From: Candidatus Latescibacterota bacterium
Lineage (GTDB): Bacteria; Latescibacterota; UBA2968
Direction: 5' to 3'
Assembly: GCA_038279365.1 (NCBI GenBank)
Contig: JAYODI010000034.1
Span: 1-51,971 of the forward strand
Length of the DNA stretch: 51,971 bases
The position numbers and the translations under genes are program-made. Under the pieces are notes generated by a model. It was given only the letters and a program-made list of their open reading frames with translations. It was not told where the DNA came from and did not search any database. Shown here piece after piece: positions 3,586-32,383 of this stretch. The first letter of the stretch is position 1, and each line of letters opens with the position of its first letter.

Positions 3586-3910
3586 GTTAAGAATATGCGT
3601 GTAACGCATGTCAGACTCAGTTTGTTTGTGCAACAAAGCAGACCCGTCAATTAAATACACATATAAATGGGTTTATCATACCCCCATTACAGTGTCCATT
3701 CACCTGAATAACCAGGGCACTTTAATGGGGGAATTTTTTTGTCCAATTATTGTTCGAGATGGATCAATAAAGGTACTCAAGGTGGGCAAAATCTACATCT
3801 GATCGTCGGGATCAAGGAGGGAGTTTGTGAAGCAGACCAGTCAGTTGGAAACGAGATAGAAAATTCGCGGGTTTTATGTTGGAAAATTTAAACAGGTGGG
3901 AGGATTAACG

Positions 3911-6900: not shown

Positions 6901-7261
6901 TCCTGTTGTTGCCGATCAGCTTATTGATCTTTCTGACAATGCCGAAGTTGCACCCGCTGTGCAAGATCGTTTGGTGCAACGCAATGCGTTCACACTGTCT
7001 CAGAATTATCCAAACCCCTTCAACCCCGAAACGGTGATTGGTTATGCCCTCGGTGAAGCTTCTGATGTGCGTTTGATCATTTACAATGTATTGGGTCAGC
7101 AGGTGCGTGAGTTGGTGAATGCGTCTCAGGCACCTGGTCAATACTCTGTGCGTTGGGATGGTCGCAATGCGTTGGGTGCTCAGGTGACAAGTGGTGTGTA
7201 TATTTACCGCTTGGTTGCGGGCACTCAGGTTGAGATGCGTAAGATGATTTTGTTGAAGTAA
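3911..7261 (+). CDS. Large secreted adhesin-like protein. It has a signal peptide, 7 FG-GAP (integrin-alpha-like beta-propeller) repeats, an F5/8 type C (discoidin) domain, a PKD-like domain, 3 HYR domains, an Ig-like domain and a T9SS C-terminal sorting domain
   Basis: The ORF track starts at GTG 3896. GTG 3911 is preferred because the RBS gggagga lies 6 nt upstream and a signal peptide (MNKLLKRWALLSGLVAFGFLMGDSVYAQ) follows. Repeated FGxxVxxxGxxxxIGAPxDD motifs mark the FG-GAP blades. The 'NTGWNSGNWGPSWIEVTF' region is discoidin-like. The C-terminal half is near-identical to that of ORF 4..1800. Confidence 0.85.
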   Translation: MNKLLKRWALLSGLVAFGFLMGDSVYAQMQTEDAKLVPGDGAAKDLFGDAVAVSGNLAIIGAPGDDVVSTFRSNNGTVYQVRAGSVYFYEFDGVNWNPNGKMVASNRTGRQHSSTMNYGQAISLLGNRLLIGSPGYDVPRNNGAEIDEGTVYAYEYDGNNWNQVGANFNPASKRPGFYMGNKISQSGDRALISAHGWQDNGIGGAVGGAYIYDYNAATHAWTESAILRPSDRAAKDNFGIGVSLSGDRAAIGKAFDDDKGTDSGSMYIFEYNGSSWVETVKFTANDGSAGAFFGHDVLLEDDVLLVGAPGDGNRGAVYVFENVGGAWIESQKLTASDGDAGDQFGWTMSRIGDRISISARFDDGRAGSAYIFENVGGIWVETQKLTASNRADDDLFGHGQIALSKSQAFVGSGRNDDRGQDSGSMYVFELGGTSEPATEYENAQPATAIASSNYPDSTAASLAVDGDVNTGWNSGNWGPSWIEVTFDQPRTFSGLHVTGVAVPAVTEAYTITATKADGNTIVVSDDFTIPLAPAVGIKDFDLGLGFTSYTKIRIEAQNAAPYPDASWISIAEIQLIVPETSNGAPVAEAGEDVSKEATSSSGTPVALDGSGSSDPDNDALTYVWSASGIDFDDAASATPTGAFPLGETTVTLTVDDGNGETSTDEVVVTITDGTAPTLTIPGGITAECTGPNGESIELGTASATDNGDANPVITNDAPDTFSMGTTVVTWTATDASGNATSAEQTVIVQDTTSPELTVPGDITAEATSPDGASVDLGEASASDICDPDPAITNDGALSVYPLGSTTVTWTATDASGNATSGDQLVNVVDTTPPDVNFSLNTGTLWPPNHKMVQVASGISASDIADENPSVVITVTSDEDINGTGDGNTEVDWEVIDGSVYLRAERDGGQDGRVYTVTVVATDAAGNTTTVTGTVDVPHGQEVASADNGKGKGKAKKLVVVSQSVTPSIVVGEAKVIAGQSSGTLVTQGESVTIVGAGPVVADQLIDLSDNAEVAPAVQDRLVQRNAFTLSQNYPNPFNPETVIGYALGEASDVRLIIYNVLGQQVRELVNASQAPGQYSVRWDGRNALGAQVTSGVYIYRLVAGTQVEMRKMILLK
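5640..7261 (+). repeat. Copy B of the ~1.6 kb duplication (see 170..1800)
   Basis: Same comparison as for copy A. Confidence 0.9.
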
Positions 7262-11748: not shown

Positions 11749-11965
11749 GATTAAACCTTATCTGTCTCTGTTGCTGGCATGTGTATGTTTACGTTAGGGT
11801 TGGGTGTGATGGGTTGTGCAATATATTATGCGATTGTATATAAATACCCGTGATTACAGTATATTATGAAATTGGTTTTTGACCAGATGCTTCAATGGTG
11901 GTGTTGTGTCTTATGCGTTTGGATTTCTACTTATGATCAATAACAAATTTGGTGCCAAATATAAA

Positions 11966-11997
11966 AAGCCGTCAGAATACAATCTGACGACTTTTTT
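11966..11997. terminator. Bidirectional rho-independent terminator and a member of a hairpin family (see findings)
   Basis: The sequence is aaaaaGCCGTCAGAatacaaTCTGACGActttttt. Confidence 0.6.
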
Positions 11998-12063: not shown

Positions 12064-13473
12064 TTATTTTGCACCTCTTTCAATTAATGCTTGAATCATG
12101 TTTTTGCGTTTTCTATCAATGGCCAAATCTAAGGGTGTGTTGCCTTCATTGTCTTTGGGATTGATGTGTGCGCCGTTGTCCAACAACAATTGTGCTTGTG
12201 GGACAAATTCCCACCACTCGGCTACGCAGTGTAGGGGTGTCCAATCACATTCGCCTGCAAAGTTGACGTCAGCCCCTTTTTCGATGAGCAGTTTTGTAAT
12301 GGCCAAACAGTTGTCTAAATCTCCAAGTGGGCGTGCGCACCAATGCAAGGCTTGAAAACCTTCGGCACTTTTGGCAAAGATCAGATCTGGGTTGGATTCC
12401 AAAAGTGCCGTTACTTGGTCTAACAGGCCAAAATGGGATGCAGTAAAGATGTCGATTTTGGCACCTTGGTCTATGAGATACCATACCACAGCTTCACTTT
12501 CTTCGTGTTTGCCATAAATTAAGGCGGCACATTGCATTGGGGTCATACCTTGTGCATTTTGTGCGTTGAGCAGATCGGGGTTCTCATTGAGGCAGTGTTT
12601 CACCTGATCAAGTAGTCCGGCTCTGGCGGCGGTGAAGATGTCACATTCAGCCCCTTTTTCGAGCAAGTATTGTACAATTTCTCTATGTTGTGGGCGATGC
12701 CATACGACATAGTTGGCCGCCATTTGGATGAGGCTTTGTGCGTTTTTGTTGGCGATGTTGGCGAGCTTTTGATCTTTTTCGATGAGGGCTTTCACTTTGG
12801 AAATATCACCTTTTTGAACGGCATCTATTACCGTATTGACGCGTTCTTCAAAGCTTGAACTGAGTGTTTGATCTTGGATCATAGATTGAAGTCCTTTGTG
12901 GTTGCGCAATCGGTCTCGTGCTGTTTGTAATCGGCTTTGAACAACAGCTTGTGATACGCCCAAAAATTCGGCCACTTCGGCATAGGAGCGATCTTCGAGG
13001 TAAAAGAGCATGAGCACTTCACGCGATTTTTCTGGCAAGCGATTGAGTGCACTTTGAATGAGGTGTTGTTGCTCGCGTTTTTCTAAGTGTGCCTGTGGTG
13101 TTTCTGGTGCGTCGCTCCATATAGGAGTGATGGATTCGGTGATTTGAGGCTGTTCTTGTTTTAGGCGATCCAAGCTTTCGGTTTTGACGTTGCGACGCAG
13201 CCACATGCGTGCGATGTTTCGACAAATACCACAGACCCAAGGGCCAAAACGCGTGGGGTCATTGAGCTTGTCGAGTGACAGATAAGCTTGTACAAAGGCT
13301 TCTTGAGCAACGGTTTCTGCATCGTCAAAGTCGCTGATCATGCCAAGCGCAACGGCATAGACACGGTTTTTGTAGTGTTGCATCAACGTGTCAAATGCCG
13401 ACCGATTGCCTTTGCGAACAGCGTGAACGTGTTGCGCATCTGTTGTGTGTGATTTTAAGTTTAATGACGTCAT
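12064..13473 (-). CDS. ECF-type sigma-70 factor fused to a C-terminal ankyrin-repeat domain (469 aa)
   Basis: Region 2 is sigma-70-like (YAVALGMISDFDDAETVAQEAFVQAYLSL). Region 4 has an HTH (LFYLEDRSYAEVAEFLGVSQAVVQSRLQTAR). After it come at least 5 ankyrin repeats (e.g. TPLHCVAEWW...LLLDNGAHINPKDNEGNTPLDLAI). The start is an ATG. Confidence 0.85.
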   Translation of the reverse strand: MTSLNLKSHTTDAQHVHAVRKGNRSAFDTLMQHYKNRVYAVALGMISDFDDAETVAQEAFVQAYLSLDKLNDPTRFGPWVCGICRNIARMWLRRNVKTESLDRLKQEQPQITESITPIWSDAPETPQAHLEKREQQHLIQSALNRLPEKSREVLMLFYLEDRSYAEVAEFLGVSQAVVQSRLQTARDRLRNHKGLQSMIQDQTLSSSFEERVNTVIDAVQKGDISKVKALIEKDQKLANIANKNAQSLIQMAANYVVWHRPQHREIVQYLLEKGAECDIFTAARAGLLDQVKHCLNENPDLLNAQNAQGMTPMQCAALIYGKHEESEAVVWYLIDQGAKIDIFTASHFGLLDQVTALLESNPDLIFAKSAEGFQALHWCARPLGDLDNCLAITKLLIEKGADVNFAGECDWTPLHCVAEWWEFVPQAQLLLDNGAHINPKDNEGNTPLDLAIDRKRKNMIQALIERGAK

Positions 13474-13564
13474 CTGTTATATATGTTGCACCGCGAGTGA
13501 AATATCTATGAAAAATAAATATATGACGCTTGTCGTTTAATGGGTGTCGTTATATATTTTAAGT

Positions 13565-13846
13565 ATGATACGATCTTTTGCCTGCCGAGACACTGAAAAT
13601 ATTTTCCATCGGCAACGTTCTAAAAAATTTCCACAGTCTATTCAGCAAGTTGCTTTGCGGAAATTGAGAATGTTGAATAGAGCAACTGCTCTACAAGACT
13701 TGCGTGTGCCACCTGCAAATCGATTGGAAAAGTTGAGAGGTGATCGCCTTGGGCGATATAGCATTCGTGTCAATGATCAATGGCGTATTTGTTTTATGTG
13801 GGAAGACGGTGATGTTTTGGATGTTGAGATTGTGGACTATCATTAG
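13565..13846 (+). CDS. higB: Type II toxin HigB (RelE/ParE superfamily)
   Basis: MIRSFACRDTENIF...NDQWRICFMWEDGDVLDVEIVDYH fits the HigB family pattern. The start was taken at ATG 13565 rather than GTG 13544. The gene is immediately followed by an HTH antitoxin gene. Confidence 0.75.
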   Translation: MIRSFACRDTENIFHRQRSKKFPQSIQQVALRKLRMLNRATALQDLRVPPANRLEKLRGDRLGRYSIRVNDQWRICFMWEDGDVLDVEIVDYH

Positions 13847-13858
13847 GAGATGATTGTT

Positions 13859-14155
13859 ATGTCTGAAAGATTAAATCCTGTTCATCCAGGTGAGGTTTTA
13901 TTGGAAGAGTTTTTGAAGCCCATGAATTTGAGTCAAAATCGATTGGCATTAAATATTGGTGTGCCACCTCGTCGAATTAATGAGATTGTTTTGGGCAAGC
14001 GTGGTATTACGGCAGATACGGCTTTGCGGTTGGCCAAGTATTTTAAAGTGTCGGCGCAATTTTGGATGGGATTGCAAATGGATTATGAGTTGGATGTTGC
14101 GGAAGATGTTTTGGGAGATCGTTTGGAGAAGGAGGTTCATTCGTATGCGGATTAA
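13859..14155 (+). CDS. higA: Type II antitoxin HigA, an XRE-family HTH protein
   Basis: NPVHPGEVLLEEFLKPMNLSQNRLALNIGVPPRRINEIVLGKRGITADTALRLAKYF is HigA-like. The RBS ggag lies 9 nt upstream of ATG 13859. Confidence 0.75.
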   Translation: MSERLNPVHPGEVLLEEFLKPMNLSQNRLALNIGVPPRRINEIVLGKRGITADTALRLAKYFKVSAQFWMGLQMDYELDVAEDVLGDRLEKEVHSYAD

Positions 14156-14175
14156 AGTTTGGGATGGAGATAAAA

Positions 14176-14212
14176 AACCGCCGTCAGAGTAAGATCTGAC
14201 GGCGGTTTTTTT
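14176..14212. terminator. Bidirectional rho-independent terminator of the same hairpin family
   Basis: The sequence is aaaaaaCCGCCGTCAGAgtaagaTCTGACGGCGGttttttt, a 13-bp perfect stem. Confidence 0.8.
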
Positions 14213-14225
14213 GTGGGTGTGTGGA

Positions 14226-16436
14226 TCAGGTGAATAATTTTTTTATTTCTGGATCGTCCTGCCGTTCGGCCGTGGCTTTTGCTGTGGCCCATGTCGATTC
14301 TTCGGGCGCGTTGGGATCAGCACCTCGGCTGAGGAGGAATTTGACCATTTCAATTTGGCCTTCGCGCACGGCTTCGGCTAAGGTGGTGCCGCCATATTCT
14401 AATTCGATGGCGTCTATGTTTGCACCTGCATCTAAGAGGGCTTCTGCGGTGTCGATTTGGTTTTTGCGCACACACGAATGTAAAAAGGTGCGACCGATCC
14501 AATTGGGTTTGTTGACATCCAAGCCGTGATCAATCAATTTTTGCATGATGGGTTTGGGTGGCACGTTGCCACCATAGATGTTGCCCGGTAAGATTTTAGC
14601 AATGATGTTACTTTGGGTTTCAAGTAAGAGATTGATAATTTCTGGATCTTCTTTACCAAGCATTTCATGGATGATTTGTTGGTCTTGTAAAATAGGATCG
14701 TTGGTTTTGATGGCGTTTTTGAGTTCTTCATCGGAGAAGTCGTAAGATGCTCTGTGTGCACCGTGAGTGATTAGGAGTGCTTCCACGGTTTCGTAGTTGT
14801 TTGGGTTTTTCACTTTGTTGATGTGGAGCACATTGCCACTGGAATCGACGTCGCCATTGGGATTTGCACCTGCTTCGAGGAGCATTTTGACAAGTTCAAC
14901 ATTGTTTTTGGCTGCCGCTTCATGAAGGGCACGACCCCGAGGCGCGAGGTGTTCGGGTTGGTTGGGGTCTGCGCCATGATCAAGCAACAGTTGGACAATT
15001 TGTGTACTGCCTGCTCGCACAGCGTGATAGAGTGGACTTGCCTCCTGATCGTCGAGTTTTTTGGCTGCTTGTGGATCGGCTTTTAACAGGGCGTTTACTT
15101 TTTCGAGGTCGGCTAAAACACACGCGAGACCGAGGGTGATGGTTGCGCCTTTGGCCATTAAATAACCTGTGATGACCCATTGGTTGCGCATGGCTTCTTG
15201 GGGGAGGTCTCTGTTCCAGCGATACCAGTAGTCGCCATTGGAAGACAACATGATGGCTGTTTGACCGTCGGATCGTTTGGCATCAATGGGAACACCCCAT
15301 TCAAGAAAGCGGTCTATAAGGTGGGTTTGTCTTGTGAGGGTTGCCCAATGCAGACCTGTGTTGCCCAATGCATCGGAGGCGGTGGCCAGGTTGGGGTTTT
15401 CAGCAATTAATTTTTCAACGGTTTCTGGATCTCGCGACCGGATGGCATTGCGAACGTGATCAAAGTTGGGGTGGTAATTGTAGCGTTCTTTCAATGTGGC
15501 TTCGATGAGTTTTTTGACGGCTTGATGACCGCGTCGGGTGAGTTCTTCCAATAGTTTTGGCCAGGCGTTGTACAGATAGCGCGATTTACCCAATTCGGCA
15601 CCGTGTTCTAAAATATATTGCACCACATCGGTATGGCCTGCTTTGGCGGCCATGTGAAGGGGGAACTGATACCAATATTGTGCATGAACCAGTGCCGGGT
15701 CGCGATCTACAAGGGTTTGTACGCGTGATAAATCGCCTGCTGCACAGGCATTGAACAATGCCCAGGCATCGTGTCCATTAACCACTTCGGTGCCGTAGAT
15801 GTATTGTTCGGTGTTCATGGAATCGGGTTGTGTGAGTTGGGCAATTCGGTTTTCGAATGTGTTGTTGCGCGAAGGTGCTTGATCTTTGAGGTGATCCATG
15901 TTGTCTAATCCTTCTTTTATGAGCCGCCTTGCCGATCTGAGCCGATTGTTGACGGTATCGGGAGACAGGTCTAAAAATGTGGCAATGTCGGCGTGTGTGT
16001 ATTGTGAGATGTAAAACAGTGTGGTTGCAACGCGCTCTTCTTGTGGAAGTGTGTTTAAGACGCGATAAAGGGCGGCCTTTTCTTCTGTTTTTGCGCGTTT
16101 TTTAATGTCTGTATCGTCGGGCACGTCAAAGGTGTTTTCACTCAGTGATGAGGTGTGTTTACGCATTTTTCGGGTGAAGCGCGTACAACGCGTAAACACC
16201 ATTTGACGAAACCAGCCTGCAAAGGCATTGGGGTTTTGTAAGCGTGGTAAGTTTGTCCACGCGCCCACAAAGGCTTCTTGGGCGGCATCTTCGGCCAAGT
16301 GGAAATCACCGATGATAGAATATGCATATCCAACGGCCATATCTTGGAATTTGTGGACCAAATGGCCAAAGGCTTGGTGATCACCTGTTTGTGCGGCTAT
16401 CACCAAGGTGGGTAAATCCGCCTGTTGAACAGACAT
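14226..16436 (-). CDS. ECF-type sigma-70 factor fused to a long C-terminal ankyrin-repeat array (736 aa)
   Basis: Region 2 is AVGYAYSIIGDFHLAEDAAQEAFVGAW. Region 4 is LFYISQYTHADIATFLDLSPDTVNNRLRSARR. About 550 aa of ankyrin repeats follow. The start is an ATG with the RBS ggag. Confidence 0.85.
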   Translation of the reverse strand: MSVQQADLPTLVIAAQTGDHQAFGHLVHKFQDMAVGYAYSIIGDFHLAEDAAQEAFVGAWTNLPRLQNPNAFAGWFRQMVFTRCTRFTRKMRKHTSSLSENTFDVPDDTDIKKRAKTEEKAALYRVLNTLPQEERVATTLFYISQYTHADIATFLDLSPDTVNNRLRSARRLIKEGLDNMDHLKDQAPSRNNTFENRIAQLTQPDSMNTEQYIYGTEVVNGHDAWALFNACAAGDLSRVQTLVDRDPALVHAQYWYQFPLHMAAKAGHTDVVQYILEHGAELGKSRYLYNAWPKLLEELTRRGHQAVKKLIEATLKERYNYHPNFDHVRNAIRSRDPETVEKLIAENPNLATASDALGNTGLHWATLTRQTHLIDRFLEWGVPIDAKRSDGQTAIMLSSNGDYWYRWNRDLPQEAMRNQWVITGYLMAKGATITLGLACVLADLEKVNALLKADPQAAKKLDDQEASPLYHAVRAGSTQIVQLLLDHGADPNQPEHLAPRGRALHEAAAKNNVELVKMLLEAGANPNGDVDSSGNVLHINKVKNPNNYETVEALLITHGAHRASYDFSDEELKNAIKTNDPILQDQQIIHEMLGKEDPEIINLLLETQSNIIAKILPGNIYGGNVPPKPIMQKLIDHGLDVNKPNWIGRTFLHSCVRKNQIDTAEALLDAGANIDAIELEYGGTTLAEAVREGQIEMVKFLLSRGADPNAPEESTWATAKATAERQDDPEIKKLFT

Positions 16437-16545
16437 TGCAACTCCACGGTTTGTTGATTGTGTTCACAACGTTTAGAAGGCCCTCTGTAGATAAAGCACC
16501 ACTATGGGATAGGATCTGGTAAAAAAAGTTTAAAAAAATAAAAAA

Positions 16546-16578
16546 AGCCGTTAGAACACGATTCTAACGGCTTTTTTC
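16546..16578. terminator. Bidirectional rho-independent terminator of the same hairpin family
   Basis: The sequence is aaaaaaaGCCGTTAGAAcacgaTTCTAACGGCtttttt. Confidence 0.8.
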
Positions 16579-16593
16579 TATGCACATGAATGT

Positions 16594-17007
16594 TTAAGCA
16601 CGGCCTTCGTCGTAGTCTATGAAATCGAACATGGTTGCAATATCATCTCGTTCGGCAATGCCGCTTTCTTTTTTTCGTTCTGCCAAACGTTCGGCAATAT
16701 CGTCTTTTAGGCCGCGTTTGGAGAAAAAGGAATTGGCCATTTTGATGTCGAGTTCGGAAGGTTTACGCCCATTTTCAAAACACCATGTGAGTAATTCGGC
16801 GTCGGTTTTCCCATCTTTTACTTGTTGAACCACATCGTCGTAGTTGACACGTAAAAACTCACACATTGCTCCATCAAAGCCTTTTCCAAGCGCGCGGTGA
16901 TAATCTTCAGGTAATTCACCTTTAAGATGCAGGCGGGCTTTGTCGAGCATTCGGGGGAAATAATAAAGACCCCCTTCTTGGTCGTAGGGTGTTCGTGGAA
17001 AAGCCAT
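16594..17007 (-). CDS. Small conserved hypothetical protein (137 aa). It may belong to a DUF5069-like family, recalled from memory, and is a tandem paralog of 17029..17445
   Basis: The RBS aaggag is present and the start is an ATG. It is 55-60% identical to its neighbour (PR[ST]PYDQEGG[LI]YYFPRM[LI]DK[AI]RLHLKG[ED]LPEDYH...). Confidence 0.7.
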   Translation of the reverse strand: MAFPRTPYDQEGGLYYFPRMLDKARLHLKGELPEDYHRALGKGFDGAMCEFLRVNYDDVVQQVKDGKTDAELLTWCFENGRKPSELDIKMANSFFSKRGLKDDIAERLAERKKESGIAERDDIATMFDFIDYDEGRA

Positions 17008-17028
17008 GGGTGCTCCTTTAAAAGTGAT

Positions 17029-17445
17029 TTATTTTAATCGATCTTCGTCTAATTCGATCAGGTCAAAAAAGGTTTGAACATCGTCTCGGTCTGAGATGTT
17101 ATGCTTTGCTTTGATTTCGGCAATGTAGTCGCTGGCACTGTCTCGCCAACCGCGTTTGGACATAAAGTCGTTGAACATGAGGATATCGCCTTCGTTGGCG
17201 TGATGGCCATTTTTAAAACACCATGCGAGTACTTCTGCATCACTTTTACCTGCTTTGACTTGTTCAATGACATCGGTATGATTGACTTGAAGAAAAGAAC
17301 AACAACGGCCGTCAAACCCATTGCCAAATTGTTCATGATAGTCTTCTGGTAAATCGCCTTTCAGGTGCAGGCGAATTTTGTCAATCATGCGTGGGAAGTA
17401 ATATATACCGCCTTCTTGGTCATAAGGACTGCGTGGGTAAGCCAT
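17029..17445 (-). CDS. Small conserved hypothetical protein, a paralog of 16594..17007
   Basis: The start was set at the internal ATG 17445 (MAYPRSPYDQ...), which has the RBS aaggag. The longer ORF in the track would overlap the upstream gene. Confidence 0.7.
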   Translation of the reverse strand: MAYPRSPYDQEGGIYYFPRMIDKIRLHLKGDLPEDYHEQFGNGFDGRCCSFLQVNHTDVIEQVKAGKSDAEVLAWCFKNGHHANEGDILMFNDFMSKRGWRDSASDYIAEIKAKHNISDRDDVQTFFDLIELDEDRLK

Positions 17446-17455
17446 TTTTATCTCC

Positions 17456-19369
17456 TTAAAATGTGTGTTGTAATTGTTGATCTTGGAATTGAATGTCGTA
17501 AATACCTGTGTTGTATTCTGTGTGGCAATAGGGATTTTCGAAGCGTGGATAGTTGCGCAGTGATATTTCCTTTCCATTGTAGATGAGGGGGTTGTTCCAT
17601 CCGAATTGGATTTCACCAAGGTTGGGTGCGTGATAGGTGACGGTTAGGTCATTGTAAGTGACGGATGAGGATGTGATTTTTTCACACCATGTTTCAAAAT
17701 TGCCATCAATGGCTTGGCGACCCAGTTGGCAAATGTATATGTTTTGACGCCCTTGGGCAATGAATCCTTCGGTGTCAAAAATAAAGTCGGGTGTCCATTC
17801 GGTGGGATGTTGTGATTTGAGTGCAATATAACCGTTGTCTTTTTGTGCGCAGATCCAACCGTTTTGTTCGATGACTTTGTCGAATTTTTGACGGGGAAAA
17901 GCTGCCACCGTGTAGGGCAACAGAATTTCTTCTGAGGGTGCGGGCGATGGTGCGGCGTTGCCTTCTGCTTCGGGCGGGAATTCGGTGGGTGGGCCTAAGG
18001 GCGGTTGATCGGGGATGTTGTAGATGGCGATCACGCAGTTTTGAATTTGTGCGGCGCGGGGCAAACGGCCTTGCCAATATTTGAGGCTTTTGTTGTCTTC
18101 GGAGCCACGGTGTAAGGTGAAGACGGGTGTGTTGTTGCTGAGTGTGGCTTGCCAAATGTGCTGTTGAAAGCCGAGTTTGCCTTTTCGAAAATCTTGTGCA
18201 CAGGAGAGTTGATAGTCGGGTGTACGATAGGTGATTTTGTTGACTTCGGAGAGTGTGCGTCTGTCCATGTCGCCATCGTGTTCTATGTGTGCGTTGTCGA
18301 GTGCTTCATAGGATTTGAGTACGGCATTGACATAGGGGCGAATGATGAGGTTGAAACACCCCGACTGAAATTGATCGGCGAGTTGGAGGGTTTGATGCGC
18401 GGTGATTCGGTTGGCAAACATGCCAGCGGCCCACATGGGCATGGCGGTTTCTGGGTCGCTGGGATGAATGCCCAAGGCGTTTGCATTTTCGAGATTGAAA
18501 CTGTGGCGTTCGAGGTTGGTGATTTCTTCGGGGGAATGATTGGCAATTTGTTGGATGATTTCGGGTACTTGATAGCGATAGCTGGTGGCCAAGCTGACAG
18601 CGGTCATGCTGTTTGCGCTTGTGAATGCGCCTTTGTCGAAGGCGATCTTTTGTGTGGTGGTGAGTGCATCACCATCTTCGTTGAGTGCGTGACGGGGATA
18701 GGTTCGACCATGTGAGGTTGCAAAGACGCCGTTGATGGAGTCTACGGCGATATCGAAAAACATAACGTCGAGCAATTTGCTTGCGGCGCTTGCAATGATG
18801 GGATCGGCGGCAAAGTCGGCAAGGTTAATGAGCGGGGCCATGTGTTCGTCGTAATAACAGTTGGAGTCCCATTCTGAAAAGCCAATGCGGGCACGTAGGT
18901 TGATCCAGTTGAGGATTTTGGTGCGTGCTTTGGCCATGTGTTGTGCGCCAGTGAGGTTGGCGTTTGGAAATGTGTGGGTTGGAAAAAGTTGCCCTGCGAG
19001 GTATTCGGCACTGTGGAAAAGGATTTGGTGGTTTTCTGTCCAGAAGAACATGAGGTCGTGGCCGGGTTCATCGACCCAATATTTGAAGTTGAGAACGGTG
19101 GTGTGTATTTCTTTGAGGAGTTGGGGAGATAGAAGTGAATGTTGTGGGTATTGATAACAGAGGCGCATGAGGCCAACAAAGGTGAAGTCGGAACAATCTT
19201 TGCGGTTGTTGACGTGTTCGAGTGCGGCTCGGATGCAGTCTTCGTCAATGGGGCCTTGGCTGAGTTCGAGGCGACAGAGCTGAGATAAAAAGCCTGTGCG
19301 TCCACCCCCTGATTTGGATTGGGCTGAATATTCGAGAAAGGCGCGTTTGCGTTGTTCGTAATTTGACAT
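17456..19369 (-). CDS. Cytoplasmic alpha/alpha-toroid polysaccharide-lyase-like protein, tentatively of the heparinase II/III or oligo-alginate-lyase superfamily. It is a paralog of 45615..47951
   Basis: There is no signal peptide. The conserved block YWxDEPGxDxMxFxxENHxxLFH plus a downstream Tyr resembles the NH...Y catalytic arrangement of alpha/alpha-toroid lyases. This rests on motif recall only. The start at ATG 19369 (MSNYEQ) was chosen over the longer track ORF. Confidence 0.4.
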   Translation of the reverse strand: MSNYEQRKRAFLEYSAQSKSGGGRTGFLSQLCRLELSQGPIDEDCIRAALEHVNNRKDCSDFTFVGLMRLCYQYPQHSLLSPQLLKEIHTTVLNFKYWVDEPGHDLMFFWTENHQILFHSAEYLAGQLFPTHTFPNANLTGAQHMAKARTKILNWINLRARIGFSEWDSNCYYDEHMAPLINLADFAADPIIASAASKLLDVMFFDIAVDSINGVFATSHGRTYPRHALNEDGDALTTTQKIAFDKGAFTSANSMTAVSLATSYRYQVPEIIQQIANHSPEEITNLERHSFNLENANALGIHPSDPETAMPMWAAGMFANRITAHQTLQLADQFQSGCFNLIIRPYVNAVLKSYEALDNAHIEHDGDMDRRTLSEVNKITYRTPDYQLSCAQDFRKGKLGFQQHIWQATLSNNTPVFTLHRGSEDNKSLKYWQGRLPRAAQIQNCVIAIYNIPDQPPLGPPTEFPPEAEGNAAPSPAPSEEILLPYTVAAFPRQKFDKVIEQNGWICAQKDNGYIALKSQHPTEWTPDFIFDTEGFIAQGRQNIYICQLGRQAIDGNFETWCEKITSSSVTYNDLTVTYHAPNLGEIQFGWNNPLIYNGKEISLRNYPRFENPYCHTEYNTGIYDIQFQDQQLQHTF

Positions 19370-19420
19370 AAAAAATTTACCTCTGTGATGGTTCGTAGAT
19401 TTAATTATGAAGTACAATGA

Positions 19421-19460
19421 TAGCAAAAGAAAACACCCTCGGAAAGAGATTCCGAGGGCG
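19421..19460 (-). terminator. Rho-independent terminator downstream of the ankyrin gene
   Basis: The stem ccctcgga/tccgaggg has a T-run on the minus strand. Confidence 0.55.
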
Positions 19461-19523
19461 TGTGTGCGTTATTTTTGGAAGATATTTAAAGTACGATGGC
19501 GAGTTTCATGGTGGTGTCTTTCT

Positions 19524-21212
19524 TTATAAGTAGCGTTGAATGAGGGCTGCGATTTCTGTGTGGCCCTTTTTTTGTGCCCAGGCAAGAGGTGTGGCCCAAT
19601 CTTCTCCGGCAAGTGTGGGATCTGCACCGCGTTCGAGATAGAGGCAAGCCAGGTCGTATTTGCCCCAGCGAACGGCCCAACCCAATGGGGTAGATTGTAA
19701 GAGGTCATCTATGACATTGAGGTCTGCGCCGTGATCACAGAGGATTTCGGCAAAGGTGACACGTTCTTTTTCGGTCATAATGGGTTCGCCCCATACCACA
19801 CCGCAAGCGGCGAGGTCGTGGGCGATGCGATAACCATAACGGCCCACGAGATTGGTGCTGACGCCATGATCGAGGATCATGCGAAAGATTTCGGGATAGA
19901 CTGAGCGATCAAAGTCGCGGTGTTTGCGATGTGGACCGACACGCCACAGGCGAAGGGGTTGTTCGAGCAAGTTGAACCAACGGCTGTCGTCGGGTGCCCA
20001 GTCGAGTTGGCGCAAACACATGCCTACAATGTTGATGTCGCCCCCACATCCTGCAGACCAAAGCAACTGTTTGGCCAGTGAGGGATCGTTTTGGAGGGCA
20101 ACGGCGGCGGCTGAGGTTTCGCCTTCAAGACCGGCGGTGGTGTGGTCGAGTGTGGCCCCGTAGCGAAAGAGCAGGCCTTTCATTTTGTCATCGCGGTTGT
20201 TGTAGGCGGCAGCGATGGGGTTGCCACTGGCATACATGCTGGCATTGGGGTCTGCACCGCTTTTGAGCAACAATTCGGCAATTTCATATTGTGAATTGCC
20301 TGCGGCATGGCCAAGGGGCTGGCCCCAACTGTAGGGTTTGGATTCGTAATGGTGAAGTTGGTGGCGATCATCGGGGTGAAGGCCGAGGTCTAATAACAAG
20401 GTTAGCATTTCGATGTTGTTGTTTTGAACGGCTATTTGGAGCAGGCCATCACGGTCGCTGTCGTTGGATTGGAAACGCTCGGGATGGTTTTGGGCATATT
20501 GTTTGACGAAGGCTTGATCATTTAGAGCAATCGCAGATTCTAAGGAGAGTGTGCATCCGGCTTGGAGAAGTAGGCCCGCACAAATGAGACAGCCTTCGTT
20601 TAGGGGCCTGTTGCGACCCCGCACATTGTGAACGGCTCCGTCGAGGGGCGATTGGCCTTCGGGTATGAGGTGGGTGATGTCGGCACCGCGTTTGAGGAGT
20701 TCTTGCACAAGTTGATAACGGCCTTTTGAGGCGGCGGCGTAGATGACACTGCCGCCGTTTCTGTGACAGGCATCGAGCAGGTCGGGGTTTTGGTCGAGGA
20801 TGGTTAAGGCTTTTTGGTCTTGTGCGTTTTGAACGGCTTCAAAGAGGGCGTCGTTTTCTTCGCTGATGGTGATGTTTGCACAAGCGGCCAGTTTGCGTTT
20901 TTCGTCTTCTTCACGGATGATGTTGACAATGTCGTCATAACCGCGTTCTTGTGCGATGGTGAAGGCGTCTGTGGCATCGCGGTGGGGGTAGATGCCTGAA
21001 GTGTGAATGGCACCCGCTTCCATGAGCACACGCACCGCGTCGGTGTGTTGGTTCATGACGGCGTAGTGAATGGCGCGGTGTTCGTTGTTTTCGGCCATGT
21101 GTACATTGACAAGGTCGGGTTGTGTAGCGAGGATTTCTTGGATTTTATCGACGTTGCCATCTGTGGCGGCTTTGCACAGGTCAGCAACTTTGTAGGTGCC
21201 ATTTGTGTTCAT
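19524..21212 (-). CDS. Ankyrin-repeat protein (562 aa) with no other recognisable domain
   Basis: Canonical ankyrin repeats recur (e.g. TPLGWAVRWGKYDLACLYLERGADPTLAGEDWATPLAWAQKKGHTEIAALI). The RBS aaggag precedes the ATG. Confidence 0.85.
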   Translation of the reverse strand: MNTNGTYKVADLCKAATDGNVDKIQEILATQPDLVNVHMAENNEHRAIHYAVMNQHTDAVRVLMEAGAIHTSGIYPHRDATDAFTIAQERGYDDIVNIIREEDEKRKLAACANITISEENDALFEAVQNAQDQKALTILDQNPDLLDACHRNGGSVIYAAASKGRYQLVQELLKRGADITHLIPEGQSPLDGAVHNVRGRNRPLNEGCLICAGLLLQAGCTLSLESAIALNDQAFVKQYAQNHPERFQSNDSDRDGLLQIAVQNNNIEMLTLLLDLGLHPDDRHQLHHYESKPYSWGQPLGHAAGNSQYEIAELLLKSGADPNASMYASGNPIAAAYNNRDDKMKGLLFRYGATLDHTTAGLEGETSAAAVALQNDPSLAKQLLWSAGCGGDINIVGMCLRQLDWAPDDSRWFNLLEQPLRLWRVGPHRKHRDFDRSVYPEIFRMILDHGVSTNLVGRYGYRIAHDLAACGVVWGEPIMTEKERVTFAEILCDHGADLNVIDDLLQSTPLGWAVRWGKYDLACLYLERGADPTLAGEDWATPLAWAQKKGHTEIAALIQRYL

Positions 21213-21227
21213 AAACGCTCCTTATGT

Positions 21228-21575
21228 TTATGTCGTCCAGCGTTCGATGATTTGCCCTTGGTTGTTGAGTTTTATGATGGCTGTGGCTGTTTTGTTAAAA
21301 AGCTCTGAGGTGTCTTTGTGGGTGCCTGTCCATGTTATGTGTGCGATTACGCGAAGGTTTTGTGATGTGATTTTTGTGATGTGTATTTGGAGATCGGGAT
21401 ACTGGGATAAGAAATGGCCGACCCATTTTTTGGTTGCTTTTGGTCCGGGTGGTGAATTTGGACCTGCATCGTGATCAACATAGTTGGGGGCGAGCAGTTC
21501 GTCGCAGACGGAGAGGTCTTTTTTGTTGAGTAAGCGGTCGAAGTATTCGCGGACGATGGCTTTGGAGTTGGTCAT
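21228..21575 (-). CDS. SnoaL-like / NTF2-fold protein of the ester-cyclase family
   Basis: KAIVREYFDRLLNKKDLSVCDELLAPNYVDHDAGP...IIERWTT is typical of SnoaL-like ester cyclases. Confidence 0.65.
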   Translation of the reverse strand: MTNSKAIVREYFDRLLNKKDLSVCDELLAPNYVDHDAGPNSPPGPKATKKWVGHFLSQYPDLQIHITKITSQNLRVIAHITWTGTHKDTSELFNKTATAIIKLNNQGQIIERWTT

Positions 21576-21620
21576 TTGATCTAAGAGGTTTGTGTATAAA
21601 TGTGAACGATGCGTTTGAGA

Positions 21621-22490
21621 TTAATGCGAGGACAATCGCCCGTTGGCTTTGAGGGTGAGCAAATTTTCTAAGGTGAGCCAACCACGCCATTCGAGTTCGC
21701 AGGCGGGGCTGGTTGCAGGCCAGGTGATATTCCAACCGCCATCTTCTTGTTGGTCTGCAATCAGGACGTCTAAGTTTGCTTCGATGTCTTCTGTTTTAAA
21801 ATATTTGCGAAGGGGGTGATCGGGTGTGCCTGCCCAGTCGAGGGGTTTGCGCACATAACCGGTGTCGTTAATATCGGCAACCAGATCGGATTGCAAAAAT
21901 GGGTCAATGAGGCGTGCCAGTTCTCTTTCTGCGCGATCTCGGTCGGATGCGTGATAAAGAAATGAGAGCGCCACACCCATGGTATGCATTTCGTTGGGTT
22001 CTAATGTGGCAATTTCTTTCCAGCAGAATTCGGTTGCGGGGGCCAGCCAATTGTGTTGGAAATTATTTTTGTGTAACAAGGCGGCAAGGCCTGCTGTGGG
22101 ATTGAGAGATGCGGGTTGATTTTCTTGGGCGTTCCACCACGGTGCACGCGGATAGGCGTGTGCAGATGGCATGAGCCAAGGAACGCCTCCTTGAGATGTT
22201 GTGATGGTGAGGAGATAATCGCAGGCCGATTGGGCTATTGGGGCGTCAAAGCCAACTGTGTCGAGTATTTTGAGTGCGTGTTCGACGGGCACGGGTTGGC
22301 TGTTTGGGCATCTGATGTCGGGTTCGAGCGCGTGACCAAATCCGCCATCTGCATTTTGATAGGCAAGTAGGGTTGAGATGACGGCTTCACTTGAGCCATT
22401 TTTGAAATGATAGGCAAAAAGATGGCGATCAATTAAGCGGGCATTTTTATAGATGAATGTTTCGGCGCGTTCTAAGATGGTTTGGTTCAT
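21621..22490 (-). CDS. Hypothetical protein with prenyltransferase/terpene-cyclase-like (alpha/alpha-toroid QxxDGGW) repeats
   Basis: The motifs QNADGGFG, TSQGGVPW and QQEDGGWN recur. The start was set at the internal ATG 22490 (MNQTILER), which has the RBS aaggaa. The upstream 125 codons of the track ORF are low-complexity and would overlap the preceding gene. Confidence 0.5.
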   Translation of the reverse strand: MNQTILERAETFIYKNARLIDRHLFAYHFKNGSSEAVISTLLAYQNADGGFGHALEPDIRCPNSQPVPVEHALKILDTVGFDAPIAQSACDYLLTITTSQGGVPWLMPSAHAYPRAPWWNAQENQPASLNPTAGLAALLHKNNFQHNWLAPATEFCWKEIATLEPNEMHTMGVALSFLYHASDRDRAERELARLIDPFLQSDLVADINDTGYVRKPLDWAGTPDHPLRKYFKTEDIEANLDVLIADQQEDGGWNITWPATSPACELEWRGWLTLENLLTLKANGRLSSH

Positions 22491-22509
22491 GGTGCAATTC
22501 CTTAGACGT

Positions 22510-23619
22510 TTAGGTGATGGCAATGCTGTAGACGGGTGGTAAATAGTTGGAGAGCGTGTTCCATGACTCGCCCTGATTTTCAGAGATCCAAACATTGCCT
22601 GTGGTGGAGCCAAATGCGAGGGTGTTGCCTTTGGGATCGCAGTCGAGCGCGTGGCGAAAGACGATGTCATAAGCATCTGTTTGAGGTAATCCTGTGCGAA
22701 TGGTTTGCCATGTTTTGCCACCATCAGTGGTTTTGTTGACAATGACTTTGCCATCAACGGGAATGCGCATTTCGTCTTTTTCGGCAGGGACCAACCACGC
22801 GATGTCAGGATTGTGAGGATGAACACAGACGGCAAATCCAAAGGCCGATGGGGTGAGGTTTTCAATGGATGACCAGTTTAGGCCACGGTCTTGGGAGACA
22901 AAGACGCCATTGTGATGTTGGGTCCAGAGTGTGTCGGGATTGTTGAGGCATTGTACGATGCGATGGGGATCTTGGAAAATGGGATTGTCTCTTTGGTCGG
23001 GGGGCATATATTCGGCAAACATGCCTTTGCTGCGCACGTTCCATGTTTGCCCACCGTCGGGTGTGTGCCAAGCGCCTCCACACGAGACGCCGATGATGAC
23101 GTCATTTGGGTCGGTGGGATGAACGCAAATGGAGTGAAGACCGGCATAGTCTTCGCCACCACCAAACCATTGCTTGCGTTCTTCTTTTTCCCATAATGAA
23201 GTGATCAACTCCCAAGTGTTGCCTTTGTCGGTGGATTTGAAGAGGCCACCGGGAATGGTGCCACACCATAATACATTGGGTTGAGATGCGTGACCGGGCG
23301 TGAGGCTCCAGATTTTTTCGAGTTTGGGTTGGTACCATGTTTCTTCGGGTTCGGATGACATACGTTTTTCTTTGGGCAGATCGGATGGGTATTGCGGGGT
23401 TGCGATTTCTGCCCAGGTTTGTCCGTTGTCTGTGGAGCGGTGAATTTTGGTGCCAAAGTGGCCGTGTAATAAAACGGCATAAAGCGATTTGTCTCGAGGA
23501 TCGGCCATGACCATGTTGACAGGAATGCCGAGAAATTCTTTGTGCGTGAGTGCCCAGCCTTGTGTTTGTTTTTCGTAGATGAACAACCCTTTGCGGGTGC
23601 CGATGAGGATGTTGTGCAT
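22510..23619 (-). CDS. BNR/Asp-box repeat protein, a sialidase-like six-bladed beta-propeller, cytoplasmic
   Basis: There are six SxDxGxTW-type Asp-boxes (STDNGQTW, STDKGNTW, TPDGGQTW, SQDRGLNW, TTDGGKTW, SENQGESW). There is no signal peptide. The start was taken at ATG 23619 (MHNILIG), which has the RBS ggag. Confidence 0.7.
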   Translation of the reverse strand: MHNILIGTRKGLFIYEKQTQGWALTHKEFLGIPVNMVMADPRDKSLYAVLLHGHFGTKIHRSTDNGQTWAEIATPQYPSDLPKEKRMSSEPEETWYQPKLEKIWSLTPGHASQPNVLWCGTIPGGLFKSTDKGNTWELITSLWEKEERKQWFGGGEDYAGLHSICVHPTDPNDVIIGVSCGGAWHTPDGGQTWNVRSKGMFAEYMPPDQRDNPIFQDPHRIVQCLNNPDTLWTQHHNGVFVSQDRGLNWSSIENLTPSAFGFAVCVHPHNPDIAWLVPAEKDEMRIPVDGKVIVNKTTDGGKTWQTIRTGLPQTDAYDIVFRHALDCDPKGNTLAFGSTTGNVWISENQGESWNTLSNYLPPVYSIAIT

Positions 23620-23652
23620 TTCTTTCTCCAACTCTTATTGTGATGATGGGGC

Positions 23653-23922
23653 CTATCCGCCTGAGAGGGCTTGAAAAATGTAGACTTCTGCGTTTTCGGG
23701 CGTGGGATCGGATAAGTGAACACGGTCTTGAATGCGCTCACCGTTGATGAAGATAACAATGTGTTTGCGCACGGCATTGTGATCGTCTAAGACATATCCT
23801 TTTGCTTCGGGCAAGTTTTCAAAAACGCGATTCAACACTTCTTTGAGCGTTTTGCCAGAGACGATTTGTGTGGGACACGAGACGTGTCGCTGAATGTTGC
23901 TGGTGAATTGTACGGTGATCAT
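23653..23922 (-). CDS. MoaD/ThiS-family ubiquitin-like small protein ending in Gly-Gly
   Basis: It is 89 aa and its C-terminus is ...YIFQALSGG-stop. The VHLSDPTPENAEVYI pattern is MoaD-like. Confidence 0.6.
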   Translation of the reverse strand: MITVQFTSNIQRHVSCPTQIVSGKTLKEVLNRVFENLPEAKGYVLDDHNAVRKHIVIFINGERIQDRVHLSDPTPENAEVYIFQALSGG

Positions 23923-24104
23923 GGTTTAAGCTTTGTGATGTTGGCCAAAGGCGATGACATATCTATCGGGGTCTTTGATGGCAAACGTTTTATAAATGCC
24001 GATGCTTCGCAGATGGTTACTGTTGCACCATATTCTAAAAGCAAGTTTACAAGCTATGGAACAACTTCATTTACTGTCATTTCAACTCTCCAGTGACTTG
24101 TTAT

Positions 24105-24644
24105 TTAAATATCTGCACCAAGGGCAAGGAAATAATTGGCGAATTCTTTGCGATTTCTATCCGTAGCTATCTTAAGGGGTGTTCCCCAGTAAGCGCTTCT
24201 TATATTCTTGTCCATACCGAGTTCGAGCAAAATTTTGGCTGCCTCTAAGTTACCCCACCAAGCTGCAGCATGAAGTACACTGTACCCCTCTTGTCCTTCG
24301 GCCATTGCCGTGAGTGAAATATCTGCGCCTTTATCTATCAGATATTTGAATACTTCAATCGCTCCAATTTGTGTTGCCTGAAGGAGGGGGGTATTCCGTT
24401 CGTGAGTCCATTGGCAGTTTACCAAATTGGGGTCATTTTCAACCAATCGCCTAACCCCATCTAAATTTCCTGTGCCACTCATAAATTGGATTTGCCAATA
24501 TTTCGCAAGTATCGAAAAATCTAAATTGTCTGGGTTTTCAAACGCGATGAAAGATGGGTCTTCTTTGCATATCTGATGCATTAAATCAACATCTCCATCC
24601 ATGCACGCGGCTCTGAATTTCCAAATATTCTCATCCTGGCTCAT
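24105..24644 (-). CDS. Small ankyrin-repeat protein (179 aa)
   Basis: About 4 ankyrin repeats are present (NTPLLQATQIGAIEVFKYLIDKGADI; YSVLHAAAWWGNLEAAKILLELGMDKN...). Confidence 0.8.
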   Translation of the reverse strand: MSQDENIWKFRAACMDGDVDLMHQICKEDPSFIAFENPDNLDFSILAKYWQIQFMSGTGNLDGVRRLVENDPNLVNCQWTHERNTPLLQATQIGAIEVFKYLIDKGADISLTAMAEGQEGYSVLHAAAWWGNLEAAKILLELGMDKNIRSAYWGTPLKIATDRNRKEFANYFLALGADI

Positions 24645-31244: not shown

Positions 31245-32372
31245 TTATATATCACGTTTTGCCAATGGTATCCATTGGCTATTTTTTTGCCCAGTATAAA
31301 CCGATTCGGGGCGGATGATGCGGTCTAAGGCGCGTTGTTCGAGGCTGTGTGCAATCCAACCCACGGCGCGACCAATGGCAAATGTGGGTGTGAAGAGATC
31401 TGGGTGTAGACCTAAGCTGTGGAGCAAGAGCGCGGTGTAGAACTCGACATTGGTTTGTAAACGGCGACCGGGTTTAAATTCTTCGAGGAGTTGGATGGCG
31501 GTTTTTTCGACGTGTTGGGCAAAGGTGTAGAAATCGCGGTCAGAATTGTCGGCAAAGAGGGATTCAAGCGCGTTGTATAAAACATCTGCACGAGGATCGC
31601 GTACTTTGTAAATGGCGTGGCCAAAACCCATGAGACGTTCGCCTTTTTCGAGTTTGGCGCGCAAATAGGGTTCGGCGTTTTCGGCTGATTGGATTTCTTG
31701 GAGCATTTGCAAAACGGGACCTGGTGCGCCGCCATGAAGGGGGCCTTTAAGTGCGCCAATGGCACCCACGATGGCTGAGATGAGGTCGGAGCGTGTGGAG
31801 GTGATGACACGTGCGGTGAATGTGGACGCATTCATGCCGTGGTCGGTAATGGTGTTGAGATAGGTGGTTATGGCGCGTGTTTGTGCGGTATTGGGGTCTT
31901 TGCCTGTGAGCATATAAAAGTAGTTGGCCGCGTGGTTCAGATTGGGATTGGGCGCAATGGGTTTTTGGTTGTTGATGAGCCGCCAATAGGTTGCAATGAT
32001 TGTGGGCAAGGAGGCGATGAGCAATTTGGCATCGGACGCATCGTCATGTATGGATGTGAGACTTAAGGTGGCGGTTGCCATGCGCAAGGCGTCGATGACA
32101 GAAACGTTTTGTGAGGCGGCCTCACGTAAGAGAACGATTGTGGCATCGGGTAAAGGTCGATGTGTTTTGAGTGCTTCTGAGAATGATTCTAATTGTGAGT
32201 TTGAGGGCAAGCTGTTGTGCCAAAGCAAATAGGCCATTTCTTCAAATGTGGCACGGGGGGCGATCTCTTCAAGCGGGTACCCTGCAATAATGAGTTCACC
32301 TTTTTCACCATCCACACTGCTTAAGTTGGTTTCTGTGGCAATGACGCCTTTGAGGCCGGGTATGTATGTCAT
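31245..32372 (-). CDS. Citrate-synthase-family protein (citrate or 2-methylcitrate-synthase-like, short type)
   Basis: The motifs GPLHGGA and GFGHAIYKVRDPRA are present. The start was chosen at ATG 32372 (MTYIPGLKG), which lies 12 nt after the upstream methyltransferase stop. Where 'NVDFY' normally carries the catalytic Asp, this protein has NVEFY. Confidence 0.7.
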   Translation of the reverse strand: MTYIPGLKGVIATETNLSSVDGEKGELIIAGYPLEEIAPRATFEEMAYLLWHNSLPSNSQLESFSEALKTHRPLPDATIVLLREAASQNVSVIDALRMATATLSLTSIHDDASDAKLLIASLPTIIATYWRLINNQKPIAPNPNLNHAANYFYMLTGKDPNTAQTRAITTYLNTITDHGMNASTFTARVITSTRSDLISAIVGAIGALKGPLHGGAPGPVLQMLQEIQSAENAEPYLRAKLEKGERLMGFGHAIYKVRDPRADVLYNALESLFADNSDRDFYTFAQHVEKTAIQLLEEFKPGRRLQTNVEFYTALLLHSLGLHPDLFTPTFAIGRAVGWIAHSLEQRALDRIIRPESVYTGQKNSQWIPLAKRDI

Positions 32373-32383
32373 ATATGATTCCT

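Follow-up and report, generated by a model that had tools for sequence, protein, structure and literature searches.

Extracytoplasmic function sigma factors with C-terminal ankyrin-repeat arrays: two fusions and a sigma-less counterpart on a Latescibacterota contig

The stretch of DNA analysed here, which we call the window, is a contig of 51,971 nt (JAYODI010000034.1) from the NCBI metagenome-assembled genome (MAG) GCA_038279365.1 of Candidatus Latescibacterota bacterium, and it carries two genes, sigma-Ank469 and sigma-Ank736, each coding for a sigma factor of the extracytoplasmic function (ECF) type that continues, in the same polypeptide, into a long array of ankyrin repeats. This combination is a real and widespread ECF architecture that is undescribed in the literature we searched, the principle of an extended ECF sigma factor being itself known (from TPR and WD40 extensions). 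What the window adds is two independent fusions side by side, together with a sigma-less counterpart of a fused array, Ank562. The two fusions, their domains, and the two stand-alone ankyrin proteins found nearby lie as follows.

12064..13473, minus strand: sigma-Ank469, ECF sigma factor of 469 aa with a C-terminal ankyrin array; uninterrupted open reading frame (ORF); Pfam Sigma70_r2, Sigma70_r4_2 and Ank matches
13186..13386, minus strand: sigma2 of sigma-Ank469, aa 30-96; Pfam Sigma70_r2, E 2.3e-10; aligns to SigW (5wuq)
12907..13062, minus strand: sigma4 of sigma-Ank469, aa 138-189; Pfam Sigma70_r4_2, E 6.5e-15
12067..12861, minus strand: ankyrin array of sigma-Ank469, about aa 205-469; Pfam Ank families (Ank_2, E 7e-25)
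14226..16436, minus strand: sigma-Ank736, ECF sigma factor of 736 aa with a C-terminal ankyrin array; uninterrupted ORF; Pfam Sigma70_r2, Sigma70_r4_2 and Ank matches
16164..16361, minus strand: sigma2 of sigma-Ank736, aa 26-91; Pfam Sigma70_r2; signature FQDMAVGY...AEDAAQEAF
15924..16073, minus strand: sigma4 of sigma-Ank736, aa 122-171; Pfam Sigma70_r4_2, E 5e-10
15837..15881, minus strand: junction motif after sigma4 of sigma-Ank736, QAPSRNNTFENRIAQ, aa 186-200; clade consensus RPSRDxxFxxxV
14229..15776, minus strand: ankyrin array of sigma-Ank736, about aa 221-736; Pfam Ank_2, E 1e-43
19524..21212, minus strand: Ank562, stand-alone, 562 aa; Pfam ankyrin families only
24105..24644, minus strand: Ank179, stand-alone, 179 aa; Pfam ankyrin families only; 18 bp downstream of uvrA

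The architecture, which a first-pass annotation of this DNA had proposed, is borne out by Pfam, with Sigma70_r2, Sigma70_r4_2 and ankyrin repeats in both proteins. Both also pass the NCBIfam model TIGR02937 (sigma70-ECF) with 101.9 and 73.2 bits, the cutoff being 42.9, and neither passes any more specific model in the NCBIfam scan. Known ECF structures (SigW, 5wuq; 8z6g; RpoE; SigH) match their sigma parts from end to end, the linker between sigma2 and sigma4 is short and predicted to be disordered by AlphaFold2 (about aa 97-124 in sigma-Ank469 and aa 95-103 in sigma-Ank736), and the Pfam scan gives no Sigma70_r3 or r1 match in either fusion. With sigma2 and sigma4 present and regions 1.1 and 3 absent, both are ECF (group 4) sigma factors. 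The same annotation was right that the fusions have no membrane segment, and this holds for all four proteins: over 19 residues, their Kyte-Doolittle mean reaches at most 1.56, where controls with a signal peptide or a transmembrane helix give 1.98 and 2.74. Its array lengths (~250 and ~550 aa) become about 265 and 516 aa when measured, and its distance of ~750 bp between the sigma genes is 752 bp, but this gap is not empty, since it carries a higB/higA pair. A homology scan of the 52-kb window finds no ankyrin- or sigma-coding region beyond the four ORFs.

Could the fusions be due to an overlooked stop codon, to a frameshift or to chimeric assembly? The genes do appear in pieces on two related contigs (L001 and L088); these, however, are low-coverage or frameshifted assemblies, whose split copies align in shifted frames to the intact gene, and we reject the idea that they represent "pre-fusion" pairs of a sigma gene and an ankyrin gene, as they are frameshifted copies of the fused gene. 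Within the same 90%-identity clusters, NCBI annotates single genes of equal length (MGA1196180.1, 469 aa; MGA1196179.1, 736 aa), labelled [quoted passage not shown], and equal-length proteins of these clusters occur in independent assemblies from NCBI, JGI, ENA and Logan; among matches in general, many are to Poribacteria. Orthologues of sigma-Ank469 keep the fusion from 98% down to 54% identity. Because the window ORFs are uninterrupted, proteins of equal length exist on other contigs and orthologues retain the fusion, an artefact is so improbable that we set it aside.

The sigma domain of sigma-Ank736 leads to a large, multi-phylum and modular ECF clade, to which this protein belongs. Its relatives at 40-57% identity, most of them 270-360 aa long among those listed, share the sequences FQDMAVGY and AEDAAQEAF in sigma2 and the motif RPSRDxxFxxxV just after sigma4. 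What follows this junction varies from member to member (ankyrin repeats, a GyrI-like domain, a glyoxalase/VOC domain, a SnoaL-like domain as in P0143, and in many cases no Pfam match); the junction motif is present behind sigma4 whatever the type of extension, and its residues P188 and S189 are at least 90% conserved, being invariant or nearly so in three alignments. With the sigma2 signature as search pattern, at least 379 relatives were found in species-representative genomes. Ankyrin extensions occur in 16 of the top 120 relatives of the sigma domain, and nine of the 21 long-extension clade members in species-representative genomes are sigma-ankyrin proteins, all of them from MAGs; by tblastn coverage these nine belong to Poribacteria, KSB1, Blastocatellia and Chloroflexota, and further examples exist in Gemmatimonadota and Alphaproteobacteria. 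A profile search of 1.84 billion representatives returned, among its top 150 matches, 81 in which sigma2 and the first repeats are covered by one and the same alignment, and every one of the 76 profile matches that were scanned contains Sigma70_r2, Sigma70_r4_2 and Ank_2. At least 76 clusters at 50% identity, from several mostly uncultured phyla, are thus sigma-ankyrin fusions, a count which is a lower bound, drawn as it is from the best 150 profile matches. The array of sigma-Ank736 is itself 39% identical over 505 aa to that of a Poribacteria sigma-ankyrin protein (L008). Further away, the clade sigma domain is 31-39% identical to sigma domains of Paenibacillus, Cohnella and Saccharibacillus, with a DUF1835 domain in at least one of two scanned Paenibacillus/Saccharibacillus loci. 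We also note a citrate-synthase Pfam match in P0220, an ECF of this clade.

The first-pass annotation called the four ankyrin proteins paralogous. For the two fusions we reject a recent duplication: their sigma domains are only 31% identical and fall in different ECF lineages. Outside its own orthologues, the nearest sigma relatives of sigma-Ank469 are plain ECFs, mostly of 160-220 aa, with at most 38% identity, so that sigma-Ank469 is a separate and narrow fusion, lineage-restricted and formed independently with an ordinary ECF sigma domain. In three orthologous loci (L005, L006 and L007) the sigma part is 91, 77 and 59% identical to that of the window and the array 87, 75 and 51%, which suggests that the two parts are under similar constraint.

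The array of sigma-Ank469 also occurs elsewhere. Many stand-alone proteins of 279-306 aa, of which some carry a Poribacteria annotation, are 55-56% identical to it, and the two proteins of this type that were examined (P0010 and P0055) begin with a signal peptide. The idea that such stand-alone homologues adjoin a sigma gene was rejected, since none does so in the loci L002 to L004, and they have signal peptides. A metagenomic protein of 738 aa (P0065) combines in one chain a sigma domain, one transmembrane helix, a proline-rich linker and an extracytoplasmic 469-type array, a predicted transmembrane architecture that is distinct from the cytoplasmic fusions of the window; another metagenomic protein, P0064, is similar to P0065 in length and Pfam matches. 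Finally, P0059, which is a sigma-ankyrin protein from the sigma-Ank736-type clade, has a 469-type array as its distal part. Exported, sigma-transmembrane-ankyrin and P0059 forms together indicate that one ankyrin module has been coupled to ECFs several times, with differing topologies, and this recurrence argues for a sensor that ECF signalling has recruited repeatedly.

The stand-alone ankyrin proteins of the window had been described as sigma-less versions of the fused arrays on account of a common repeat style. That style turns out to be generic to bacterial ankyrin arrays of this type; the claim itself is well supported for Ank562 and weakly for Ank179. Ank562 is collinear over 559 aa with the array of sigma-Ank736 (E 2e-22), and we consider it a sigma-less version of a fused array because it shares 36% identity, along its full length (565 aa), with the array that a sigma-ankyrin protein of 760 aa has in a Poribacteria MAG (L010). 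Its N-terminus coincides with the first repeat after the sigma junction in P0173. An orthologue of Ank562 (79%) stands alone in L002 to L004, in a region without a sigma gene, and an exported ankyrin protein of the 469 type is encoded two genes away. The similarity of Ank179 is confined to the C-terminal half of the sigma-Ank469 array (31% over 127 aa), and the protein is kept at 179-180 aa on many contigs (one member has 165 aa). Two other stand-alone genes were seen next to sigma-ankyrin genes: an extra one of 209 aa at 2397-3026 of L001, between the promoter-like element and the sigma-Ank736 orthologue, and one directly after the sigma-ankyrin gene of L012 (Blastocatellia).

Each sigma gene of the window is a separate transcription unit, placed between terminators and preceded by its own conserved block. 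The elements concerned are the following.

13474..13516, minus strand: promoter-like element upstream of sigma-Ank469, TTTTTCATAGAT-N14-ATGCAACATATATAACAG; kept across orthologous loci while the flanks diverge; putative function
16476..16530, minus strand: promoter-like element upstream of sigma-Ank736, TTTTTTACCAGATC-N13-GGTGCTTTAT...GGCCTTC; kept in the window, L001 and L006; putative function
16540..16578, minus strand: intrinsic terminator between a DUF5069 gene and sigma-Ank736, 18-bp stem and T run; kept in L001 and L006
14172..14212, no strand assigned: hairpin terminator just past the sigma-Ank736 stop codon, AAAAAACCGCCGTCAGA...TCTGACGGCGGTTTTTT; bidirectional, also ending higA
11965..11995, no strand assigned: hairpin terminator after sigma-Ank469; kept in five loci

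From 8 to 28 kb the genes of the window lie on the minus strand, the higB/higA pair that separates the two sigma genes being on the other one (a higB-like toxin at 13544-13846 and an HTH antitoxin at 13850-14155, both plus strand; Pfam HigB-like_toxin and HTH_3). This pair is also present in the syntenic locus L006; L001 and L005 lack it and have a gap of about 113 bp. In orthologous contigs the gene order is 656-aa protein, DUF5069, sigma-Ank736, sigma-Ank469, pyridine-nucleotide-disulfide oxidoreductase, VTT/DedA and HAD hydrolase, and the sigma-Ank736 gene is missing from the most distant one (54% identity). In this lineage the sigma-ankyrin gene or genes always come after the DUF5069 gene and that of the 656-aa protein (17456-19426, minus strand; 71-87% identical in syntenic contigs), with a terminator in between; the window has two tandem DUF5069 genes (16594-17007 and 17029-17445, both minus strand), and the syntenic contigs L001 and L007 have one. 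Together with a protein of roughly 289 aa (21621-22490, minus strand), the 656-aa protein flanks the Ank562 and SnoaL genes. We reject the labels "lyase-like" and "terpene-cyclase-like" that these two proteins had been given, as there is no Pfam, NCBIfam, PADLOC or PDB-sequence match for either.

The suggestion that the neighbouring genes are the targets of the sigma factors is not supported, because each sigma gene is bounded by terminators, has its own upstream element, and shares no ECF promoter with the genes around it; the oxidoreductase operon downstream of them has, besides, a sigma54-type promoter that is conserved. The AAC-N15-18-CGT type of promoter that had been envisaged is found upstream of none of the sigma, 656-aa, oxidoreductase, Ank179 or SnoaL/Ank562 genes; two matches, at chance level, lie in the 473-bp stretch upstream of the BNR gene (23632-24104). 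The upstream regions of the two sigma genes have AGAT-N11-13-GGTGC in common, a pattern derived from these very two sequences, and as a shared promoter of the sigma genes its looser form AGAT-N10-14-GGTGC was rejected (5 occurrences in the window for 2.0 expected, and none upstream of another minus-strand gene). Nor is there a conserved neighbour around sigma-ankyrin genes in other phyla (36 neighbours, 9 loci). No anti-sigma Pfam family was found among the window proteins scanned, a search that a divergent anti-sigma factor could escape, and none is present among the 25 most frequent families in those 36 neighbours.

How do these proteins compare with known systems? Few bacterial signalling families are as large as the ECF sigma factors, and those with fused extensions have been treated as sigma "one-component systems". 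C-terminal ECF extensions correlate with the lack of an anti-sigma factor (PMC7826278), and repeat extensions (TPR in ECF42, WD40-like in ECF57) have been proposed to mediate protein interactions, with only their proximal part touching sigma4 (PMC8999054). The window fusions have these features of the class: a sigma core whose polypeptide continues past sigma4 for more than 50 aa (the ankyrin arrays measure about 265 and 516 aa), and no recognised anti-sigma gene adjoining either sigma gene (Pfam). They resemble ECF42 (Sven_0747 of Streptomyces venezuelae, ECF-10 of Pseudomonas putida) in that an ECF core is followed by at least about 200 aa of helical interaction repeats, with no cognate anti-sigma factor and with a regulation by protein interaction that has been proposed (PMC8999054, PMC7826278). 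The repeats of ECF42 are, however, TPR, whereas the window proteins match no TPR family at E <= 0.01 (Pfam), have longer arrays (265-516 aa), no YCII-domain neighbour that we could find, and, in their sigma core, another signature (FQDMAVGY and the RPSRD junction). ECF57 likewise joins an ECF to a protein-interaction repeat domain with no known partner (PMC8999054), but its extension is a beta-propeller, while the window arrays are alpha-solenoids with no match to a WD40 family; in ECF57, paired cysteines have also been proposed as a sigma2-sigma4 link. ECF41, ECF56, ECF294 and ECF295 (SnoaL-like) and ECF264 (DUF1835) are also ECFs with a fused regulatory domain, of a different fold: neither fusion has a SnoaL match, the SnoaL-like protein of the window being encoded by a separate gene (21228-21575), and DUF1835 is absent from both (Pfam) and was found in one scanned relative only. 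Fusions to class I anti-sigma factors differ as well, for no zf-HC2/RskA-type domain or transmembrane helix follows sigma4 in the window proteins. In sum, these fusions lack the extension feature that defines ECF41, ECF42, ECF57 and ECF264.

An ankyrin array is indeed, as the first-pass annotation supposed, not an established ECF extension: in the library searched, no paper was found linking ankyrin to ECF or anti-sigma factors, and neither the ECF reclassification paper nor the 2021 and 2022 reviews have the word "ankyrin" anywhere in their main text. MzaA, of the MZA anti-phage system (NF041931), could seem a precedent, being a protein named after the sigma-70 family whose model matches ankyrin repeats. 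Membership was rejected: only Ank562 matches, with 40 bits for a cutoff of 800 and at profile positions 34-90, and MzaA is not among the 25 NCBIfam families listed for either sigma-ankyrin protein. Membership in a defence system in general was rejected too, the PADLOC matches being mostly to ankyrin repeats, with no Mza model.

In the AlphaFold2 model of sigma-Ank736 the sigma domains have a predicted local distance difference test (pLDDT) score of 92-97, and the junction is predicted to be ordered (pLDDT 80-92 over aa 171-230, including a short hairpin); in that of sigma-Ank469 the array has pLDDT 81-98. Beside the observed architecture, the size of the family, its modularity, the lack of anti-sigma neighbours and the separate transcription units, we place a reading that we think probable, with real room for doubt: these proteins would be one-component ECFs in which the ankyrin array senses a partner and gates the sigma factor through the junction. 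The array would be a cytoplasmic module for binding, standing in for a separate anti-sigma factor; its ligand would most likely be a protein partner, possibly a small ligand, and its occupancy would decide whether sigma2 and sigma4 engage RNA polymerase and promoters. In sigma-Ank736 the coupling would probably run through the conserved structured junction (RPSRDxxFxxxV and the first repeats), and the stand-alone ankyrin proteins, which are related by descent to the fused arrays, might have binding partners in common with them. By analogy, such sensing and gating would fit what is proposed for other extended ECFs (PMC8999054) as well as the absence of a nearby anti-sigma gene. That the array regulates sigma activity at all, in which direction it does so, and what its ligand and regulon may be, are points on which we infer from the data above.

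Several results weigh against this reading. The junction of sigma-Ank469 is predicted with only moderate confidence (pLDDT 61-67), and neither model docks the array globally on the sigma domains with confidence, as judged from predicted template modelling scores (pTM) of only 0.56 for sigma-Ank469 and 0.55 for sigma-Ank736. No target promoter or regulon was found; in ten sigma-ankyrin upstream regions the best shared bipartite motif occurs in 4 of 10, as in the shuffled null, and none of the ten has AAC-N15-18-CGT. In addition, all family members found come from MAGs or metagenomes, none from a cultured organism.

That the models do not dock the array confidently on sigma (pTM 0.55-0.56) would also fit an array that acts as an adaptor or tether, anchoring the sigma factor or the holoenzyme to a partner or a location, or bringing a co-factor to RNA polymerase, with no intramolecular gating. 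Ankyrin arrays are generic protein-binding scaffolds, a Foldseek search of the model against the PDB returning only generic ankyrin structures (DARPins, ankyrin-B, the RNase L sensor domain), and arrays of 265-516 aa far exceed the size needed for masking. We nevertheless regard this explanation as unlikely, since the clade swaps ankyrin repeats for small ligand-binding folds behind the same junction, which fits sensing better, and no conserved partner gene is found nearby. Another comparison is with the eukaryotic NF-kB p105/p100 and IkB, in which a C-terminal ankyrin array in cis exists alongside stand-alone ankyrin proteins. The likeness, a DNA-directed factor with an ankyrin array in cis and stand-alone ankyrin paralogues, is one of logic only, the DNA-binding part of p105/p100 having no homology to the window fusions; carried over to them, it would make the fused arrays auto-inhibitory and turn Ank562 and Ank179 into soluble anti-sigma factors acting in trans, or into decoys in competition for one partner. 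In support, homology to sigma-fused arrays covers the whole of Ank562, which begins at the junction boundary, stand-alone ankyrin genes adjoin sigma-ankyrin genes in the window, L001 and L012, and an Ank562 orthologue and a 469-type protein are two genes apart in a region without a sigma gene. That very region (L002 to L004), however, places the Ank562 orthologue away from sigma genes and beside an exported 469-type protein, which means that stand-alone forms have sigma-independent roles, and Ank179, 18 bp after uvrA, has a context that appears unrelated, so that we find such a division of labour quite unlikely for these proteins. A broader proposal, in which ankyrin arrays would be an unrecognised soluble class of anti-sigma factor or sensor, in cis when fused and in trans as Ank562, and the clade with the RPSRD junction a plug-in platform for sensors (ankyrin, GyrI-like, VOC, SnoaL-like, citrate-synthase-like), seems to us similarly doubtful.

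Ankyrin expansions are well known in sponge-associated bacteria, and the ankyrin genes of the window might belong with such eukaryote-like proteins, serving interaction with a host or prey in the way that has been proposed for sponge symbionts, the sigma fusions being incidental or decaying. The closest stand-alone relatives of the sigma-Ank469 array do have signal peptides and include Poribacteria proteins. The four window proteins, on the other hand, have neither a signal peptide nor a transmembrane segment, the fusions remain intact from 98% to 54% identity with both domains under similar constraint, and the architecture recurs in at least 76 clusters from several phyla, all of which makes this last explanation very improbable in our opinion.

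A few observations concern other parts of the window. Two matches to the sigma54-type -24/-12 pattern TGGCAC-N5-TTGY occur, for 0.49 expected. One, at 11943-11957 on the minus strand (TGGCAC-N5-TTGT), lies upstream of the oxidoreductase-VTT-HAD operon and is kept in five loci, as is the block AACnnTAACGTgAACATaCACATGCCAGC at about 11755-11800 (minus strand), perhaps a leader or operator, directly before the oxidoreductase start codon. The other, at 3571-3585 on the plus strand, lies between the gene of an NtrC-like sigma54 activator (1943-3430) and that of a 1121-aa FG-GAP/HYR surface protein (3896-7261). Immediately upstream of the BNR/Sortilin-like gene (22510-23631), an ORF of 89 aa (23653-23922, minus strand) has a C-terminal Gly-Gly and resembles ubiquitin-fold proteins of the MoaD/ThiS type. 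Beside an ordinary citrate synthase gene (31245-32414), the region 33225-34445 (plus strand) codes for a protein of 406 aa in which an HTH_17 DNA-binding domain, at the N-terminus, is joined to a citrate-synthase-like domain; with P0220, it raises the idea that regulators may use the citrate-synthase fold for sensing. In all 2-kb bins (1-50000) GC skew lies between +0.10 and +0.31, independently of gene strand, and AT skew is negative throughout, a strand asymmetry that we judge unusually strong.

If the ankyrin array indeed gates the sigma factor, these proteins would add a new type of sensor to the ECF family, and they would give a cytoplasmic role to some of the bacterial ankyrin proteins that are usually assumed to be effectors directed at a host. 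A modular clade with a single conserved junction could also become a chassis for engineered sigma switches, within the limit set by the fact that no cultured carrier has been found. The size of the family, its modular junction and its cis/trans ankyrin pairs make it, in any case, a testable system.

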